Assembly: GCA_015655375.1 (NCBI GenBank)
Contig: JAATFD010000041.1
Location: 8,612-72,611, forward strand
Direction: 5' to 3'
DNA from: Actinomycetales bacterium
GTDB lineage: Bacteria > Actinomycetota > Actinomycetes > Actinomycetales > Actinomycetaceae
Length of the DNA: 64,000 bases
Shown piece by piece: positions 56,160 to 63,468 of the stretch. A model generated the notes under the pieces. The model was not told where the DNA came from. It searched no databases and saw only the letters and a list, made by a program, of their open reading frames with translations. Position 1 is the stretch's first letter. Every line of letters begins with the position of its first letter. The position numbers were made by a program, and so were the translations under genes.

Positions 56160-57227
56160 ATGGCTCCCACACCGACGACGTCCAGTGACGACCACTTGTC
56201 CGCTCGGGAGTTCCCCGAGCATTTCCCCGACCCGTCTCTCGCGCCGACGGCGGATTCTGTCCTCGCCCTCGTCGGGAGCACTCCTGTGGTCCGACTCACC
56301 GAGGTGACGGAGGGTCTTCCCGCCCAGATCTTCGTCAAGCTCGACCAGACGAATCCCGGCGGGTCATCCAAGGACCGCATCGCCCTGCACATCGTGCGTG
56401 AGGCCGAGCGCAGCGGCGAACTGGCCCCGGCAGCCCGCATCATCGACAACGGAGCCGGCAACACCGCGATCGGGTTCGCTCTGGTCGGGGCCCACACCGG
56501 GCATCCCGTCACTCTGGTCGCCTCCTCCGAGCTGTCCCCCGCCAAGGAACGTTTGCTCAGACTCTACGGAGCCGAGATCCTGCGAGGGCGCCCTGACCTT
56601 CCCTTCTCGGATCCACAGAACTGGGAAGCGATCGCCGCGCGACACGCCGACGAGGATCCCGCCACCTGGTGGTCGCACCAGAGCGCCACGCCGACCAATC
56701 CGGACGCCCACTATCTGTCGACGGGACCCGAGATCTGGAAGCAGACCGCGGGGCGCGTCACCCATTTCCTCGCAGCCACCGCCACCGGTGGAACGGTGTC
56801 GGGAACGGGCCGCTACCTCAAGGAACGCAATCCCCGCATCCGGGTCATCACCACCGATTTCGTCGAAGGCCCCAACACCTCCAATGGTTTGGCCGCGGCC
56901 ATCGCCTCCGATTCCCCGGTCCCCGAGGACGAGCGGGCATGGCCCGCCAACATCGACACCGAGCTGATCGACAGGCTCGAATTGCGGCCTCGTCACGACG
57001 TCATCGAGCTCGGGTGGCGCCTGGCCCGCGAGGAGGGGCTGGCGCTCGGCCTGACTTCGGCGCTCTCCATCCTGGTCGCCCTCGACCTCGCTCGCGAGGC
57101 GACGCCGGAGGACACCTTTGTCGTTTTCAGTGCCGATTCCGCCCGCGACTACCTTGACCACGAATACAACGCGGAGTGGTTGCAGGCCCATGGCCTGGCC
57201 GACATCGCCGACGAGTACAACGACTGA
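56160..57227 (+). CDS. PLP-dependent cysteine synthase / cystathionine beta-synthase-like enzyme (PALP fold), divergent
   Basis: The ATG has a GAGGAGG RBS. ...LVGSTPVVRL...KLDQTNPGGSSKDRIA (PLP-Lys context)...GAGNTAIGFA...NPDAHYLSTGPEIW...ATATGGTVSGTGRYLKE. It deviates from the canonical TSGNTG and GTGGT loops. Confidence 0.75.
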   Translation: MAPTPTTSSDDHLSAREFPEHFPDPSLAPTADSVLALVGSTPVVRLTEVTEGLPAQIFVKLDQTNPGGSSKDRIALHIVREAERSGELAPAARIIDNGAGNTAIGFALVGAHTGHPVTLVASSELSPAKERLLRLYGAEILRGRPDLPFSDPQNWEAIAARHADEDPATWWSHQSATPTNPDAHYLSTGPEIWKQTAGRVTHFLAATATGGTVSGTGRYLKERNPRIRVITTDFVEGPNTSNGLAAAIASDSPVPEDERAWPANIDTELIDRLELRPRHDVIELGWRLAREEGLALGLTSALSILVALDLAREATPEDTFVVFSADSARDYLDHEYNAEWLQAHGLADIADEYND

Positions 57228-57240
57228 GACAGGAACACCG

Positions 57241-58419
57241 ATGCCTGAATCCACTGACACCGGCGACCTCGCGACCATCGAGGGCGCGTTCGAGGACGAT
57301 CCACGTCTGAAGAACCTCGAGGTCCTCGACTCTTCCGGGCTGATGGCAGCGGAGGTCTCCGATTCCTTCCACCGCCAACGCAACCACTTCCCCGCCCGCT
57401 TCGGCGAGGGGCCCGGGCTGATCCCCGTGATCCCCGGCCGCTACCGGCTGGTCGGATCGCCCGAATGCGGATGGAACCGCCGCCAGCGAATCGTGCGCCG
57501 TCTGCTCGGGCTGGAGGAGGCTCTGCCCATCGAGAACCTCATCACCCGCGCCGAGGACGGCAACTGGATCATCGCCCGGCGCGGGGGCGACCTCGTCGAG
57601 AGATTCGGTACTCGCCGACTCAACGACTTCTACGAGCGCACCGACCCGGACTTCACCGGGCGCGGGACCTCACCGACGATCATCGACGCCCAGACGGGAC
57701 TGGTCGCGACGAACAACTACCACACACTCAGCCTCGACCTCGAGACCGCGTGGAAACCGTTCCACACACAGGGCGCCCCTGACCTCTATCCCGAGGACCT
57801 GCGCCCGCGCATCGATCTGCTCAACCAGCAGCTCTTCGACGACGTCAACGACGGGACCTACCGGACGATCGAGGCCCCGACGGTAGAGGGCGCCCGAGCC
57901 GCTTACGGGATCTTCGAGGCGCGCCTGCGTGAGTACGACTTCCGGCTGGCGAGCAGGCGCTATCTGTTCGGCAACCGGCTGACCGACTCCGATGTCCGCC
58001 TGTTCCAGACCATCAGCTCCTTCGATCGAATCTATCGACCGGCTATGGTCGCGCGCCTGGGCGAGGGCGTCATCCGGCTGCCGGAGCTGGAGAACCTGTG
58101 GGGTTATGGCCGCGACCTGTTCCAACAGGGATTCGTCGACGAGGTCGAGTTGTACTACCTCACGCTTGTTCCCGGACCGTCGGGCAACTACCTGCCCGAT
58201 CCTTTGACGTTCGGCGGCGAGCTGCCTGCGCTCAGCCCCAAGGAATCCCTGGCCGCGTGGCGCGCGCCCTCGGGGCGCGAGGAACTGGGCGGGGATTCAA
58301 TCGCGCCCGGACCCGGCGACGGCGGGTCGGTGACCCTGTGGCACCTGCGCGGGGACCCGCTTGAGACCACGTTCCCGACACCCCACCTCGGTGCGCTCCA
58401 CACCGACCCGACCAAATAA
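57241..58419 (+). CDS. Xi-class GST / glutathionyl-hydroquinone reductase (YqjG/ECM4)-like protein, paralog 1, with a CGW active-site variant
   Basis: GRYRLVGSPECGWNRRQRIVRRLLGLEE (family: GRYHLYVSxACPWAHR...KGLE). ...FTGRGTSPTIID...YPEDLRPRIDLLNQQLFDDVNDG...RRYLFGNRLTDSDVRLFQTISSFDRIY. Confidence 0.75.
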   Translation: MPESTDTGDLATIEGAFEDDPRLKNLEVLDSSGLMAAEVSDSFHRQRNHFPARFGEGPGLIPVIPGRYRLVGSPECGWNRRQRIVRRLLGLEEALPIENLITRAEDGNWIIARRGGDLVERFGTRRLNDFYERTDPDFTGRGTSPTIIDAQTGLVATNNYHTLSLDLETAWKPFHTQGAPDLYPEDLRPRIDLLNQQLFDDVNDGTYRTIEAPTVEGARAAYGIFEARLREYDFRLASRRYLFGNRLTDSDVRLFQTISSFDRIYRPAMVARLGEGVIRLPELENLWGYGRDLFQQGFVDEVELYYLTLVPGPSGNYLPDPLTFGGELPALSPKESLAAWRAPSGREELGGDSIAPGPGDGGSVTLWHLRGDPLETTFPTPHLGALHTDPTK

Positions 58420-58430
58420 GGACACCCCTC

Positions 58431-59567
58431 ATGTCGTCCACCCCCATGCCCTCGGTGCCCACGACGCCTCGCTCCCCCACGCCGGCCATCACCTCGGCCT
58501 CGTCCTCCGACTCGGCTGGGGACTACCCCGAGCTCGCTGTCGAACGGACCCCGGACGGAACGTTTCGCCCTCAACACAATCTGTTCCCCGGCCGCTTCGG
58601 CATCGGCCCCGGTCTGACACCGCCCGAACCGGGTCGCTATCACCTGCTCGGCAGCCTCGATTGCGGGTGGTTCCGCCGCCAGCTCATCGTCCGTCGATTG
58701 GTAGGCCTGGAAGAGGCGATCCCCGTCGAGTTCCTCAAGAGCCACGACACCGACGGCTGGCACATCGGACACCAACCGGGCGGATCCATCGAGACCTTCG
58801 GGTACCACCGGCTCAACGACTTCTATCGGGCGACCACCGGTGCTTTCGCGGGTCGAGGCACATCTCCGACGATCGTCGACTTCGAGCAGGGAGTGGTTGT
58901 CACGAACGACTACCACACGATCAGCCTCGACCTCGAGACCGCGTGGGCTCCCTTCCACGCCGCAGGCGCCCCGAACCTCTACCCAGAGGACCTGCGCCCT
59001 GAGATCGACCTGCTCAATCAGCAGATCTTCGACGATGTCAACAACGGCGCAGACAAAGTGCTCTTCGCTCGCTCGCGGGGTGCGGCCCAAGCGGCCTACG
59101 CCGTCTTCGCGGCACGCCTGGCCGACTTCGACTTCCGCTTGACCAACAGGCGCTACTTGCTCGGCCACCGTCTGACCGATTCTGATGTCCGGCTCTACCA
59201 GACGCTCAGCTCCTACGACGTGCGGTACCGGCCCGGGATCGCGGCCAAGCTCGGGGACTCCGTCCTCCATCTGCGCGACTTCGAGCATCTGTGGGCCTAC
59301 GCGCGCGACCTTTTCCAGCAGGGGTTCTCCGACGAGGACGACCAGTTCCATCTCGGGCTGATCCCGAGCTCGCGCGGGACCTATTACGCCGACGACGACC
59401 TGCGGGGAGGCTCATCCTTCGACGGGACGAGCGACTGGGATCCCGAGACCGAGCTCGCCGGGTGGAGTGAGCCAGCCCGTCGAGAGACGCTCACGAACTC
59501 CGCCCCCTACTCGGGGCCTGGCGCGGGAGGGTCCGCCGAGCTCTGGCGTTTCGGGGGGCGCGCATGA
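58431..59567 (+). CDS. Xi-class GST / glutathionyl-hydroquinone reductase-like protein, paralog 2, with a CGW active-site variant
   Basis: GRYHLLGSLDCGWFRRQLIVRRLVGLEE...FAGRGTSPTIVD...YPEDLRPEIDLLNQQIFDDVNNG...RRYLLGHRLTDSDVRLYQTLSSYDVRY. It is colinear with paralog 1. Confidence 0.75.
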   Translation: MSSTPMPSVPTTPRSPTPAITSASSSDSAGDYPELAVERTPDGTFRPQHNLFPGRFGIGPGLTPPEPGRYHLLGSLDCGWFRRQLIVRRLVGLEEAIPVEFLKSHDTDGWHIGHQPGGSIETFGYHRLNDFYRATTGAFAGRGTSPTIVDFEQGVVVTNDYHTISLDLETAWAPFHAAGAPNLYPEDLRPEIDLLNQQIFDDVNNGADKVLFARSRGAAQAAYAVFAARLADFDFRLTNRRYLLGHRLTDSDVRLYQTLSSYDVRYRPGIAAKLGDSVLHLRDFEHLWAYARDLFQQGFSDEDDQFHLGLIPSSRGTYYADDDLRGGSSFDGTSDWDPETELAGWSEPARRETLTNSAPYSGPGAGGSAELWRFGGRA

Positions 59568-60862
59568 CGGCGGTCCCCCTGGACGACGACGCACGCGAGA
59601 CAGATCTGCGCAAAGTCAAGTTGCTCGGGACGGGCCTGCTCGACGTCGAGGTCGAGGGTGGCTACCGGATCCGTCTGGCTGACCCCGAGGAATATGACGA
59701 GGTCGGTAACGTCCTCGATGCAACCTACAGCGCGAGCCTGTCGATCTCCGACCTCTACAGGTCGGGCCTGCACCGCATCCGCGAGCGCGCGGAATCCTCT
59801 CTCGTGTGGCTCGTCGGTGATCCGGGCGGAGCAATTGTCGGCGCCGTCCTCACACCCCTGCCCCAGTTCCGCGCCGACCCGGATTTCACGTTCAACATCC
59901 TCGGCGTCCACCCGGACCACCGGGGCAAAGGATTGGCGCGGGCGCTGGTCGCGCACACGTTCCATGTCGGCGAGGCCTACGGATACCACCGGGTTCTCAT
60001 CCACTCCGGCCCGGACATGACCGCCGCGCATTCGCTATATCGATCGATGGGGTTCCACCGCCGCATCGACCACGAGACGATCATCGTCGACGGCGGACTG
60101 CGTCTGCTGCACTTCACCCGTCCGCTGACCCCGAAGCCGGGCGCAGTCCCGGCGCCCCTCATCGAGGACCGCCCGGAATTCGGTCCGGCACTCGATCCGA
60201 TCCACCTCCAGGCCAGGAGCACCATGACTGTCAATGCACCACCCGATCCGTACCGCTGGCCCGAGGACGAACGCGACCCCGTCCCCGCCGAGAACAAGGG
60301 CGAGCCGGGCTCCGTGGTCTCTCCCCTGGATCCTCGTTCGTGGCCATCGGTGGCGGGCCGCCGTGTGCTCGGGCCCGATGACATCGGTGATCGGCTTGAG
60401 GACGCCCTCGATCCGGTCATCGACCACGACCTCGTCGCGCCGTTGCTTCGCATTGCTTTCGGCGCTGACGACGATTCGGGGCCGGATTCCCATGCGAGCC
60501 TGCGCCGGCTCTTCTATGCCAGGCTCGGGTGGTTCGACGACCTGCTCGGCGGGCATCCCTTCCTCGGTGGCGATCGCCTGCTGGAACCGGACCTGCGGCT
60601 CTTCGGAGTGACCGTGACCTTCGACATCGCCTATCGGGGCCTCTTCCCGGCAGCAGACGCCGCGATCACCGATTACCCGAACCTGTGGCGTCACGCCCGA
60701 CGACTCTTCCAGACTCCGGGAGTGATCTCCGAGGACGAGAAGACCACGATCGGCCTCGTCCCTCGTCCGGACGGCACCTTCGCGGAACCATTGGGCCCGC
60801 CAGCCCCCCGGGAGCTTCTCCCCGATCTGCGTGCCGCATGGAACGAGCCCGTTCTCCGCTGA
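59564..60862 (+). CDS. Fusion protein: N-terminal GNAT acetyltransferase + C-terminal Xi-GST alpha-helical domain (no thioredoxin-like/Cys domain)
   Basis: ATGA overlap with the upstream gene. GNAT core: ...ILGVHPDHRGKGLARALVAHTF...SLYRSMGF. C-terminal part: ...HPFLGGDRLLEPDLRLFGVTVTFDIAYRGLF...YPNLWRHARRLFQTPGV. This part aligns by eye with the C-domains of the two upstream paralogs. Confidence 0.7.
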   Translation: MTAVPLDDDARETDLRKVKLLGTGLLDVEVEGGYRIRLADPEEYDEVGNVLDATYSASLSISDLYRSGLHRIRERAESSLVWLVGDPGGAIVGAVLTPLPQFRADPDFTFNILGVHPDHRGKGLARALVAHTFHVGEAYGYHRVLIHSGPDMTAAHSLYRSMGFHRRIDHETIIVDGGLRLLHFTRPLTPKPGAVPAPLIEDRPEFGPALDPIHLQARSTMTVNAPPDPYRWPEDERDPVPAENKGEPGSVVSPLDPRSWPSVAGRRVLGPDDIGDRLEDALDPVIDHDLVAPLLRIAFGADDDSGPDSHASLRRLFYARLGWFDDLLGGHPFLGGDRLLEPDLRLFGVTVTFDIAYRGLFPAADAAITDYPNLWRHARRLFQTPGVISEDEKTTIGLVPRPDGTFAEPLGPPAPRELLPDLRAAWNEPVLR

Positions 60863-60925
60863 AGGCAGCTCTGCCACCAGCAGCATTACGGTCCCAGTGC
60901 TGTCTCGGTGCTCGAGGCTGCTGTC

Positions 60926-61558
60926 ATGAGCGATTCAGACACCCCACGTCCCCCCTCCCTCACCGACCGTCTCCGCCAGGACCTGGCCGAGAGGCGCGTC
61001 CTCGTCCTCGACGGCGTCCTCGACGAGGACAACGGAACCGGGCTGGCAGCCCAGCTGGTCATGCTCGCCGACCGGGATCCCGCAGCCGACATCGATCTGT
61101 GGATCCGCTCCCCCGGCGGATCTGTCCCCGCCATGCTCGCCCTCCGAGACCTCATGAAGATGCTGCCCTGCGATGTCTCGACGCTCGTCCTCGGGATCGC
61201 TTACAGTGCGGGCCAGTTCCTGCTGTCCGCGGGAACGCCCGGAAAACGGCGCGCGTTGCCGCATTCGCGAGTCCTCATGCATCAAGGATCGGCAGGAATC
61301 GGCGGCAGCGCCGTCGAGGTCGAACTCCAGGCAGGCGACCTGCGCCTGACCAGGGACACCGTCCTCGACCTCATCGCCGCAGACACCGGGCAACCACTCG
61401 AGCGCATCCTCGCCGATTCCCAGCATGACCACTGGTACACGGCCGGCGAGGCACTCGACTATGGATTCGTCGACCACATCGTCGATTCCTTCGACCAGGT
61501 CGCCCCACCTCGACGATCGGGAGCGGGAGTCGGAGCGTCCGAGGAGACCACGCGATGA
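60926..61558 (+). CDS. Divergent ClpP1-like protease subunit (Ser/His/Asp positions retained)
   Basis: ...IDLWIRSPGGSV...GIAYSAGQFLLSAGTPGKRRALPHSRVLMHQGS...ILADSQHDHWYTAGEALDYGFVDHIV is colinear with actinobacterial ClpP1. ATG 60926 is preferred over GTG 60908. Confidence 0.75.
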   Translation: MSDSDTPRPPSLTDRLRQDLAERRVLVLDGVLDEDNGTGLAAQLVMLADRDPAADIDLWIRSPGGSVPAMLALRDLMKMLPCDVSTLVLGIAYSAGQFLLSAGTPGKRRALPHSRVLMHQGSAGIGGSAVEVELQAGDLRLTRDTVLDLIAADTGQPLERILADSQHDHWYTAGEALDYGFVDHIVDSFDQVAPPRRSGAGVGASEETTR

Positions 61559-62148
61559 GCTCCACCTACACGATCCCCCAGGTCATCGAGCAGAATCCCC
61601 ACGGCGAACGAATCATGGACGTCTACTCACATTTGCTCAATGAGCGGATCATCTACCTCGGTACACCGATCGACGCGGGGGTCGCCAATGCCGTGGTCGC
61701 CCAGTTCCTGTTTCTGGAGTCCTCCAGTCCTGAGTCCTCGATCCAGCTCTACATCAATTGCGAGGGCGGGGACCCCTCCGCGATGCTCGCCATCCATGAC
61801 ACGATGCAATTCATCCGACCCGACGTCGCCACGACCTGCGTCGGGGAAGCCGTGGGGCCGGGCGCGGTGCTCCTCGCGTCGGGAGCGCCCGGTCAGCGGG
61901 CGGCACTTCCCCACGCGCGAGTAGTTCTGCATCAGCCCTCCGCCCAGGGGCGCGGGGATATCCCCGACCTGATCCTCCAAGCGGACGAGGTTGTGCGCAT
62001 CCGCCGCGACGTCGAGGAGATCCTTGCATGCCATACCGGCCGGGACGCGGCAGAAGTCCATGCCGACACCGATCGGGAACGGGTCCTGACCGCCGAGGAT
62101 GCCCACGACTATGGCGTCATCGACACCGTGCTCGGCCAGCGGGGGTGA
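61555..62148 (+). CDS. ClpP2-like subunit lacking the catalytic Ser and Asp (ClpR-like pseudo-protease)
   Basis: YTIPQVIEQNPHGERIMDVYSHLLNERIIYLG...YINCEGGD...CVGEAVGPGAVLLASG (canonical GQAASMG)...VVLHQPS...ADTDRERVLTAEDAHDYGVIDTVL (canonical TERDRF). The codons are GGG at 61855-61857 and GAA at 62077-62079. ATGA overlap with the upstream gene. Confidence 0.75.
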   Translation: MSSTYTIPQVIEQNPHGERIMDVYSHLLNERIIYLGTPIDAGVANAVVAQFLFLESSSPESSIQLYINCEGGDPSAMLAIHDTMQFIRPDVATTCVGEAVGPGAVLLASGAPGQRAALPHARVVLHQPSAQGRGDIPDLILQADEVVRIRRDVEEILACHTGRDAAEVHADTDRERVLTAEDAHDYGVIDTVLGQRG

Positions 62149-62163
62149 AAGAGGGGCCGTCCG

Positions 62164-62520
62164 TCAGGCCGCGAGCAGGTGGACCGCGTCCATTCGAGCG
62201 GAAGTGCCAGAGGCTGTCGCTCCGACCTCGTTCCGAACGGAGGCGACGCTCCCGACCCCAAGGCTCCGGGACACCTCCTCCGTGAGGTCGACCAGGGTCA
62301 GGCCGAGCGCTCGCGCGACGGCTGCCACCACCTCGCTGGACGGTTCCTTGAGCCCCCGCTCAATCTCGGAGAGATACTGGGGCGAGACGCCGGCACGAGC
62401 CGCGGTCTCCCCCAATGTCTCGTCGCGATCGTGGCGGGCGTCGCGCAGACAATCGCCCACGACCTCTCGCCACAGCGGCTCGCGCGCGGCACCGCCTTCG
62501 TACACCGTGATCTGGATCAT
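62164..62520 (-). CDS. clgR: ClgR/PopR-type XRE-family Clp gene regulator
   Basis: ...LWREVVGDCLRDARHDRDETLGETAARAGVSPQYLSEIERGLKEPSSEVVAAVARALGLTLVDL... closely follows the ClgR core (REVVGD.LR...YLSEIERG.KEPSSE). The C-terminus is ...VHLLAA. Confidence 0.8.
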   Translation of the reverse strand: MIQITVYEGGAAREPLWREVVGDCLRDARHDRDETLGETAARAGVSPQYLSEIERGLKEPSSEVVAAVARALGLTLVDLTEEVSRSLGVGSVASVRNEVGATASGTSARMDAVHLLAA

Positions 62521-62601
62521 GGTTCATGCTACGGCGGCCGGGATGCCCACCCGCGGTGCCTCCGCTGTGAGCAGATTCCGCATCTCAGAAGGAGAATGAT
62601 C

Positions 62602-63468
62602 ATGAATGCTGTCGCTGTCATCGGGTTGGGGACCATGGGGCGCCCGATCGCTCGCAATTTGATGAAGGCCGGGTACGACGTCACCGTCTGGAACAGGTCG
62701 AGCGGCCGCGTCGACGAGTTGGTGGCTGAGGGAGCACGCCCCGCCCACAGCGTCGCCGAGGCGCTCGAGGTCGGGACTGTGTTGTCGATGGTCTCCAACG
62801 ATCAGGCCGTTTCTGAGCTCTTTCTCGACTCCGGTGTGCTCGAGGCCGCACCCACGGGAACGGTCCACGTCAATCTCGCCACGGTCAGCACCGGTCTGGC
62901 CGAACGTGCCGGGCAGATCCATGCTGCTCACCACGTCGGCTACGTCGCAGCTCCCGTCTTCGGTCGGGAATCCGTCGCCGAGGCCGGAGCGCTCAACATC
63001 CTCGCCGCCGGAGACCCCGCGCTGATCGACCGGGTCCAACCCGTCTTCGACGTCATCGGCTCGCGGACCTGGAGGCTCGGGAACCGACCCGAACAGGCCA
63101 ACATCGTCAAGATCGCTGGCAACTACCTCATGGCATGCGCGATCCAGTCCCTGGGTGAGGCCGTCAGCCTGGCCGAGGCCAGAGACGTGGACGCCGGGCA
63201 ATTGACCGAGCTGTTGTCCTCGACGATGTTCCCCGGTCAGGTCTACGGCACCTACGGCAAGCTGATCGCCCAGCGCCGCTATCAGCCTGCCGGTTTCACG
63301 ACCGAGCTGGGACGCAAGGACCTGCACCTGGCCCTCGACTCCGCCGCACACGCCAACATCCCATTGCCGATCGGCGAGGTCCTCCGATCGGTCTTCGACC
63401 AAGCGATCCAGGCCGGACACGGCCACGACGACTGGGCCTCGATCACGGAACAGGAGCCACGGAGGTAA
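62602..63468 (+). CDS. NAD(P)-dependent beta-hydroxyacid dehydrogenase family oxidoreductase (MmsB/GarR-like)
   Basis: MNAVAVIGLGTMGRPIARNLMKAGYDVTVWNRS...; the ATG at 62602 lies 6 nt after GAAGGAG. Confidence 0.82.
   Translation: MNAVAVIGLGTMGRPIARNLMKAGYDVTVWNRSSGRVDELVAEGARPAHSVAEALEVGTVLSMVSNDQAVSELFLDSGVLEAAPTGTVHVNLATVSTGLAERAGQIHAAHHVGYVAAPVFGRESVAEAGALNILAAGDPALIDRVQPVFDVIGSRTWRLGNRPEQANIVKIAGNYLMACAIQSLGEAVSLAEARDVDAGQLTELLSSTMFPGQVYGTYGKLIAQRRYQPAGFTTELGRKDLHLALDSAAHANIPLPIGEVLRSVFDQAIQAGHGHDDWASITEQEPRR

Follow-up and report, generated by a model that had tools for sequence, protein, structure and literature searches.

Predicted non-catalytic ClpP4-type subunits in a clpP3-clpP4-popR-type cassette of an Actinomycetales bacterium and its relatives across actinomycetes

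A 64,000-nucleotide stretch of a contig from an Actinomycetales bacterium (JAATFD010000041.1 of assembly GCA_015655375.1, positions 8,612 to 72,611; hereafter the window, with coordinates counted from its first letter) carries two overlapping genes for ClpP-type proteins and a convergent regulator gene, and the product of the second, here called the clpP4-like gene, lacks the catalytic Ser nucleophile. Our preferred reading, to which we assign a probability of about 0.7, is that this product is the ClpP4-type subunit encoded by a clpP3-clpP4 pair under PopR control and forms a non-catalytic ring together with the catalytic ring of its ClpP3-like partner. The window gene is an ordinary member of its clade, which we name after its oxyanion-loop motif Cys-Glu-Gly-Gly (CEGG); it is the pattern of the clade that is notable, with two routes to a dead ClpP4 ring and an invariant ClpP3 triad. 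ClpP4-type rings across the Actinomycetes are likely to be natural pseudo-proteases in which catalysis was lost at least twice independently, through the His in Streptomyces and through the Ser in the CEGG clade.

The clpP4-like product matches the Pfam family PF00574 (Clp_protease) with 210 bits (E-value 2.9e-62), residues 16–195 covering profile positions 2–181 of 182. Catalytic columns were assigned from phmmer alignments with solved ClpP structures (including 8r04, 6hwm, 7dft, 1tyf and 5dzk), more than 100 of which align without gaps (best E-value 1.6e-60), among them E. coli ClpP (1tyf, residues 7–196 against 3–192) and M. tuberculosis ClpP2 (5dzk). Since this gap-free identity is around 50%, the ClpP fold is beyond doubt, and the end-to-end alignment that an earlier note on this DNA had made by eye holds. 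Where an active peptidase has Ser, His and Asp, the product has Gly101, His126 and Glu175, and its oxyanion loop is altered (Table 1), all as that note had proposed from the sequence alone. Because the alignments are free of gaps in these regions, no neighbouring Ser or Asp can be shifted into the catalytic columns, which removes the misalignment that the note had raised as an objection to itself. With its nucleophile absent the product should be no serine peptidase, and it is best described as a predicted non-peptidase homologue within ClpP and peptidase family S14. It scores below every NCBIfam ClpP cut-off (for example, 236.9 against 249 for NF001368 and 216 against 308.6 for TIGR00493), and database names for its relatives are "ClpP family protease" or "proteolytic subunit". 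The sequence GAGGAG (61541–61546) lies 8 nt upstream of the ATG, which overlaps the clpP3-like stop codon by 4 bp (ATGA) and thereby suggests translational coupling of the two genes.

Table 1 Window coordinates of the cassette genes, the putative operator and the active-site columns of the clpP4-like product
Feature	Coordinates	Strand	Evidence
Putative PopR-type operator, two tandem imperfect palindromes	60855..60884	+	Consensus match, conserved position
clpP3-like gene (210 aa), ClpP1-type, Ser94/His119/Asp168 and SPGG	60926..61558	+	PF00574, E-value 2.4e-48
clpP4-like gene (197 aa, ATG start, TGA stop)	61555..62148	+	PF00574, ClpP alignments
Cys69-Glu70-Gly-Gly replacing oxyanion-loop Ser-Pro-Gly-Gly	61759..61770	+	INCEGG aligned to INSPGG
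Gly101 in nucleophile (Ser) column, codon GGG	61855..61857	+	GEAVGPG aligned to GQAASMG/GQAASAA
His126, catalytic His column, kept, codon CAT	61930..61932	+	LHQP aligned to IHQP
Glu175 in catalytic Asp column, codon GAA	62077..62079	+	DTDRERV aligned to D.ERD../DTDRDKI
popR-like gene (118 aa), HTH_31/XRE, ClgR paralogue, convergent with clpP4	62164..62520	-	Pfam HTH_31/HTH_3

Comparison with relatives separates the inherited from the private substitutions. The product is a singleton at 90% identity, and its nearest relatives, 68–76% identical, come from many actinomycete orders. Triad residues were counted in the columns of MAFFT alignments; scoring by regular-expression motifs was dropped as unreliable for the partner P3, whose open reading frames (ORFs) were extended upstream. 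Among the 120 best matches, CE replaces SP in 119 and the His column is invariant; the Ser column holds Ala (77), Ser (19), Gly (16) or Asp (8), and the Asp column is Asp in 119, the single Glu being that of the window. At the codon level, His is encoded at 163 of 164 family loci and GAC or GAT stands in the Asp column at 162. A wider set of 367 unique ClpP4-type sequences is dominated by the triad states A-H-D (160), S-G-D (94), G-H-D (59), S-H-D (37) and D-H-D (9), and the G-H-E state of the window is unique among them. The changes from Ser to Gly and from SPGG to CEGG are clade-wide traits, and only that from Asp to Glu is private to the window sequence. A further column varies nearby: the Arg of DTDRD (window residues 173–175, DRE), which we take to correspond to the Arg that serves other ClpPs as an inter-ring oligomerisation sensor, is His (DTDHD) in much of the CEGG clade, including most Nocardioides.

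A neighbour-joining tree with E. coli ClpP as its root joins the 258 sequences of the CEGG clade and the 99 of Streptomyces ClpP4 as sister groups and leaves M. tuberculosis ClpP2 outside both. The placement against the Streptomyces ClpP paralogues that the earlier note had called for is thereby achieved in part: orthology with ClpP4 is possible, given a sister position at about 55% identity on a tree without support values, but the signature motifs of the two clades differ. A full triad is found in only 27 of the 357 sequences of these clades, scattered within groups that have Ala or Gly. The tree requires no fewer than 23 changes in the Ser column, among small residues, and three in the His column; the Ser-column codons GCN, GGN, TCN and GAC are all one nucleotide step apart.

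Authentic Streptomyces ClpP4 has taken the other route. Its catalytic His is absent from 99 of 99 sequences (Gly in 97), with LLGQP (in RVLLGQP) where LIHQP is expected, and Ser, Asp and SPGG are kept; the S-G-D group is this ClpP4. Its sequences were reached with the published S. lividans operator of the regulator PopR (see below) as a genome scan query, which returned 120 loci, nearly all from Streptomyces and 113 with ClpP matches; the inspected loci keep the gene order of the cassette and encode regulators ending in LAA. This DNA search replaced a search of a representative library, which returned mostly fused or frameshifted representatives and was of no help toward Streptomyces ClpP4. 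With Embleya P4 as the query no Streptomyces loci were retrieved, because Streptomyces ClpP4 forms a separate clade.

A published alignment of the ClpP4 of S. hawaiiensis, S. lividans and S. coelicolor displays the loss in the His column and leaves it uncommented (PMC12607617 Fig. S1). In the searchable literature, which did not extend to the original papers of Viala et al., we found the triad of ClpP4-type subunits nowhere described as incomplete, and nothing relevant on ClpR or pseudoproteases in actinobacteria or Streptomyces; this agrees with the opinion in the earlier note that a non-catalytic subunit was not a described feature of actinobacterial pairs. The accompanying premise that both subunits are normally active fails for Streptomyces, where the Ser of ClpP2 is dispensable (PMC9765437) and ClpP4 has no catalytic His. 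Papers on "ClpP3/ClpP4" of A. missouriensis and S. cattleya follow another numbering and have no bearing on the window pair. As a separate observation, the alignment of Streptomyces ClpP5 in the supplement of PMC12607617 (text derived by optical character recognition) reads GQAGPSAAVLL in S. lividans and S. coelicolor and GQAGAASSVLL in S. hawaiiensis; counting back from VLLA, the Ser column holds Pro or Ala, and ClpP5 may have no canonically placed nucleophile.

The clpP4-like gene is under purifying selection and evolves slightly more slowly than its catalytic partner. Across the family, ratios of nonsynonymous to synonymous substitution rates (dN/dS; Nei-Gojobori on codon-threaded alignments) stand at 0.18 in P4 against 0.21 in P3; the window sequences, compared with all others, give 0.19 and 0.22, respectively. 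With dS at approximately 0.8–1.1, and so partly saturated, these values are approximate. The window P4 has the second-longest terminal branch of 256, and its partner is equally divergent from the family (z of -2.9 for P4 and -3.0 for P3, with a P4/P3 ratio of 0.92 that equals the family median), so the long branch is a lineage effect. GC content at third codon positions (GC3) in the clpP4-like gene is 0.80, typical for genes of the window. The N-terminal axial segment (YTIPxVIxQxPRGERxMDVYSHLL) is among the best-kept parts of P4, with a conservation of 0.88 against 0.65 in P3, which is consistent with ATPase docking on the P4 ring.

The partner upstream of the clpP4-like gene shows no such erosion. 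The best solved relatives of the clpP3-like product are mycobacterial ClpP1 proteins (E-value 2e-52), with which its triad aligns without gaps, and Ser, His and Asp are invariant at 164 of 164 family loci, as expected from the earlier claim that the ClpP1-like partner has an intact triad. In the Streptomyces partner, ClpP3, the same three residues are present at 108–109 of 109 loci. The clpP3-like gene has a GAGG 8 nt ahead of its ATG. A ClpP1-like gene stands directly upstream of the P4-type gene at all of the 84 loci first examined, and three annotated contexts (window, Nocardioides and Microbacterium) share both the 4-bp P3/P4 overlap and a three-gene unit made up of a 210-aa ClpP, a 195–200-aa ClpP and an HTH_31/XRE gene on the opposite strand. 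A homologue of this helix-turn-helix (HTH) gene occurs downstream of P4 on the opposite strand at nearly all loci, adjacent to it in most. The complete cassette, in which a ClpP1-like and then a ClpP2-like gene are followed by a ClgR-paralogue HTH gene on the opposite strand, is present in the window and across many actinomycete orders; with members in Nocardioides, Microbacteriaceae, Streptosporangiales, Glycomyces, Tsukamurella, Nocardia, Cellulomonas and others, it is far wider than the Streptomyces literature suggests.

Individual loci depart from this layout. In many Microbacterium genomes the popR-like gene lies 1.5–5 kb downstream of clpP4, with other genes inserted between, and at one locus (L083) the HTH match is split in two pieces and the cassette adjoins a serine recombinase and a TrwC-type relaxase. 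The cassette of Embleya sp. NBC_00888 (L046) resides on a replicon of 5.7 Mb that carries the label of a plasmid. In Micromonospora sp. NPDC048909 (L168) the exact S. lividans PopR operator is accompanied by a single adjacent ClpP gene with a full triad and an HTH gene, possibly a one-gene variant of the cassette.

PopR, a paralogue of ClgR, is the activator of clpP3clpP4 and itself a substrate of ClpP1P2 (PMC9765437, PMC9775585), its degradation running through its C-terminal alanines (PMC9775585), and its site in S. lividans is TCTGCC-3N-GGCGAATCTGCC-3N-GGCAGA (PMC9775585). In the window, the best NCBIfam match of the popR-like product is ClgR (E-value 4.7e-18), below the equivalog cut-off as expected of a paralogue, and its C-terminus reads ...HLLAA. 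HTH products end in Ala-Ala (typically ...ALAA) at 64 of 77 loci, and in LAA at 67 of 74 family loci and 90 of 99 Streptomyces loci. The putative operator, TCCGCTGAAGGCAGC followed by TCTGCCACCAGCAGC, has the halves TCCGCT-GAA-GGCAGC and TCTGCC-ACC-AGCAGC, is placed 42–71 bp upstream of the clpP3-like ATG, and has an equivalent double palindrome at equal distance upstream of the P3-like gene in related loci. The family consensus TCYGCYNNNRGCRGNTCTGCCNNNRGCAG has a single match in the 64 kb, with 0 mismatches, and matched in 0 of 100 shuffles. A scan of 60700–62700 for promoter and terminator consensus sequences found nothing. The putative operator also overlaps the TGA stop (60860–60862) of the preceding gene, leaving almost no intergenic spacer before the regulatory site. 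By its PopR-type operator, its LAA-ended ClgR-paralogue regulator and its Streptomyces gene order, the locus reads as a clpP3-clpP4-popR-type cassette and not as a ClpP1P2 housekeeping pair with an odd mutation, so the assignment to a ClpP1P2-type pair in the earlier note has to be abandoned.

In Streptomyces ClpP1P2 only the triad of ClpP1 is needed; complexes with ClpP2(S->A) retain full activity, and ClpX, ClpC1 and ClpC2 bind to the ClpP2 ring (PMC9765437). As ClpP3 is ClpP1-like and ClpP4 is ClpP2-like, we propose the same division of labour for the window pair. The clpP4-like product, most likely a conserved, selected and non-catalytic ClpP, would form a homo-heptameric ring stacked on the ClpP3-like ring, ClpP3(7)ClpP4(7), would present the axial face and hydrophobic pockets for docking of ClpX or ClpC, and would hold the ClpP3 ring in its active conformation; all cleavage of peptide bonds would take place in the ClpP3 ring. 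The downstream ClgR paralogue probably binds the double palindrome and drives expression of clpP3-clpP4, and its SsrA-like ...LAA end probably marks it for destruction by functional Clp protease; the pair would therefore be induced when Clp capacity falls. The hetero-tetradecamer, the docking of the ATPase on the ClpP4 ring, activation by and degradation of a PopR, and a backup role are all drawn by analogy from ClpP1P2 of Streptomyces and M. tuberculosis and from ClpP3P4. The retained His126 and Asp/Glu175 probably have a structural role in inter-ring coupling.

Several points weigh against this proposal. Assembly, docking and inactivity of the clpP4-like product are predictions from sequence, and the tree was built from matches selected by similarity. 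Roughly 10% of the CEGG clade carry a full triad and could be active. Despite the lost nucleophile, His126 is almost invariant and residue 175 is Asp nearly throughout the clade, so these residues must still do something, and they may retain a catalytic role. The search for a canonical locus that the earlier note had advised gave a negative result within the 64 kb: tblastn found no ClpP paralogues beyond the two cassette genes, Pfam found no tig, clpX or clpC among the 20 other large ORFs, and the window holds no canonical clpP1-clpP2. No cassette transcripts were present among the contigs of two metatranscriptome runs of the same study, a result that is uninformative at contig level.

The alternative that survives best, unlikely as we consider it, is that the clpP3-clpP4 pair is the main or sole Clp core of the organism, feedback-regulated by a PopR/ClgR-like activator. 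It fits the lack of a clpP1P2 in the window, the position of the cassette within a core chromosomal neighbourhood (ispH, xseA, ychF, typA, greA) and its conservation across many actinomycete orders. Yet the 64 kb cover only part of the genome. Actinobacteria generally carry tig-clpP1-clpP2-clpX, and the cassette is found in Nocardia, Tsukamurella and Embleya, which belong to groups known to have that locus. This alternative concerns the physiological role only and is compatible with a non-catalytic ClpP4 ring.

A second possibility, that the subunit is still a peptidase whose nucleophile was relocated to Cys69 of CEGG, acting with His126 and Asp/Glu175, appears highly improbable. It would account for the near-invariance of His126 and of an acidic residue 175 while residue 101 varies freely, and for a Cys (TGC/TGT, 155 of 164 loci) or Ser (9 of 164) at position 69 in all members, CE replacing SP in the very loop that builds the oxyanion hole; if true, it would imply a thiol-type ClpP ring with chemistry and inhibitor sensitivity unlike those of the partner ring. 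However, canonical ClpPs too have a conserved, non-catalytic Ser at position 69 (SPGG), so such a residue is nothing new; positions 69 and 101 do not covary, SE occurring with Gly or Ala at 101 and CE with Ser at 101; and the Streptomyces sister clade loses the His itself, which fits a general loss of catalysis in ClpP4 and not a relocation.

A reading of the clpP4-like gene as a duplicate in decay, on its way to a pseudogene and away from ClpP function, is largely refuted. Two of the three triad residues are changed, the terminal branch is long, and Glu175, Pro102 and Glu98 are seldom seen in the family, but the ORF runs intact over its full length, is preceded by a Shine-Dalgarno sequence and overlaps the upstream gene by 4 bp; the Pfam score is 210 bits, GC3 is typical of the window, dN/dS is no higher than that of the intact partner, and the partner has diverged equally. 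The Gly-Pro pair (GP motif) of the window is also found in Georgenia, which TypA identity places among the nearest named relatives. Sequencing or assembly error at the catalytic codons, for which nothing speaks beyond the a priori possibility attached to any metagenome contig, is very unlikely to the point of being negligible, since the source run, a wood-decay metagenome, was also assembled independently in Logan, with a contig identical over 60800–62600 (1.8 kb, approximately 24x word depth), Gly101 is a common family state and the reading frame is intact; the sequencing error that the earlier note had named as a possible refutation is thus set aside.

Positions 1–56000 of the window are core chromosome of a high-GC actinomycete (64.7% GC), and its TypA is 88% identical to that of uncultured Actinomyces metagenome-assembled genomes and 81% to that of Georgenia. 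Genes of the window include those for a DegT-type aminotransferase, LytR-CpsA-Psr, an epimerase, purK, a histidine kinase, DUF885, dapD and citrate synthase; typA/bipA, an opp-type ABC transporter, ychF, ispH, xseA and a pfkB kinase; and greA, msrA, FKBP, BaxI and a PALP enzyme. Immediately upstream of the cassette, the forward strand has a tandem array of three paralogous ORFs (57118–60862). The first two (57241–58419 and 58431–59567) share 55% identity (E-value 1e-121) and match nothing in Pfam or NCBIfam; the third (59564–60862), whose stop codon is overlapped by the putative operator, has a C-terminal half 31–36% identical to them, a fused N-terminal GNAT acetyltransferase domain and a weak GST_C_2 match. 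By eye, these ORFs resemble Xi-class glutathione transferases with an altered Cys motif (C-G-W).

Actinobacterial Clp proteases are antibiotic targets, bound by acyldepsipeptides (ADEPs), β-lactones and cyclomarin-type ClpC1 binders, and in Streptomyces ClpP3P4 is the escape route that ADEPs do not affect. Catalysis appears to have gone almost universally from the second subunit of this backup pair, the His being lost in Streptomyces and the Ser in a sister clade that is widespread. Should this hold, evolution has repeatedly arrived at the ClpP2(S->A) arrangement, which is fully active by experiment in ClpP1P2, and two-ring actinobacterial Clp cores would follow a general division of labour in which one ring cuts and the other docks the unfoldase. 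Covalent active-site inhibitors would then reach only seven of fourteen sites in such cores, and the annotation "ATP-dependent Clp protease proteolytic subunit" would mislead for ClpP4-type genes.

The closest known system is clpP3-clpP4/PopR of S. lividans and S. coelicolor (reviewed in PMC9765437, PMC12607617 and PMC9775585), with which the window locus shares the order of operator, ClpP1-like gene, ClpP2-like gene and convergent ClgR-paralogue HTH gene, a double palindrome of the TCTGCC-N3-GGCAGA type, a regulator ending in LAA, and a pair whose first subunit has an intact triad and whose second has a broken one, the P4 clades being sisters on the neighbour-joining tree. It differs in that identity to the window proteins is only about 55% for P4 and 47% for P3, and in how the triad is broken: Streptomyces ClpP4 keeps SPGG and the Ser and loses the His, whereas the window clade keeps the His and has CEGG with Ala or Gly for the Ser, to which the window P4 adds Glu for Asp. 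Induction upon failure of ClpP1P2 is demonstrated only in Streptomyces.

The actinobacterial ClpP1P2 proteases (M. tuberculosis, Streptomyces hawaiiensis) likewise have adjacent ClpP1-type and ClpP2-type genes, and in Streptomyces the division into cutting by ClpP1 and docking by ClpP2 is that proposed for the window pair (PMC9765437). Unlike the window P4, ClpP2 keeps a canonical Ser-His-Asp triad (PMC9765437); its locus lies with tig and clpX under control of ClgR, whereas the window pair has a regulator encoded in the cassette, and the N-terminus of the window P4 (YTIPQVIEQ..GER) resembles generic ClpP more than the RYILPSFIE type of ClpP2. Listeria monocytogenes ClpP1, with Asn172 in the Asp column, works only in a hetero-complex with ClpP2 (PMC9765437). 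The window P4 is similarly non-canonical in that column, but Listeria ClpP1 keeps its Ser nucleophile and is active in the complex, whereas the window P4 has no nucleophile at all.

The ClpR proteins of cyanobacteria, plastids and Plasmodium are ClpP paralogues without catalytic residues, kept as structural or regulatory subunits of the Clp core. The window P4 shares with them a broken triad and retention by purifying selection, and would share presence in the core complex, so the analogy with ClpR drawn in the earlier note is a fair functional one, without common descent. Its origin is independent of cyanobacterial and plastid ClpR; it nests within actinobacterial ClpP4, its closest relatives being actinobacterial ClpP4 and ClpP2. 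Many ClpRs carry an extra loop insertion, which is absent from the window P4 (gap-free against ClpP), and ClpR mixes with ClpP within one ring, whereas actinobacterial pairs form one ring per type. Non-catalytic ClpR is mentioned alongside active ClpP subunits in PMC8182300; by its sequence, the window P4 would work like such a ClpR-type subunit, yet it stands outside the cyanobacterial and plastid ClpR lineage.

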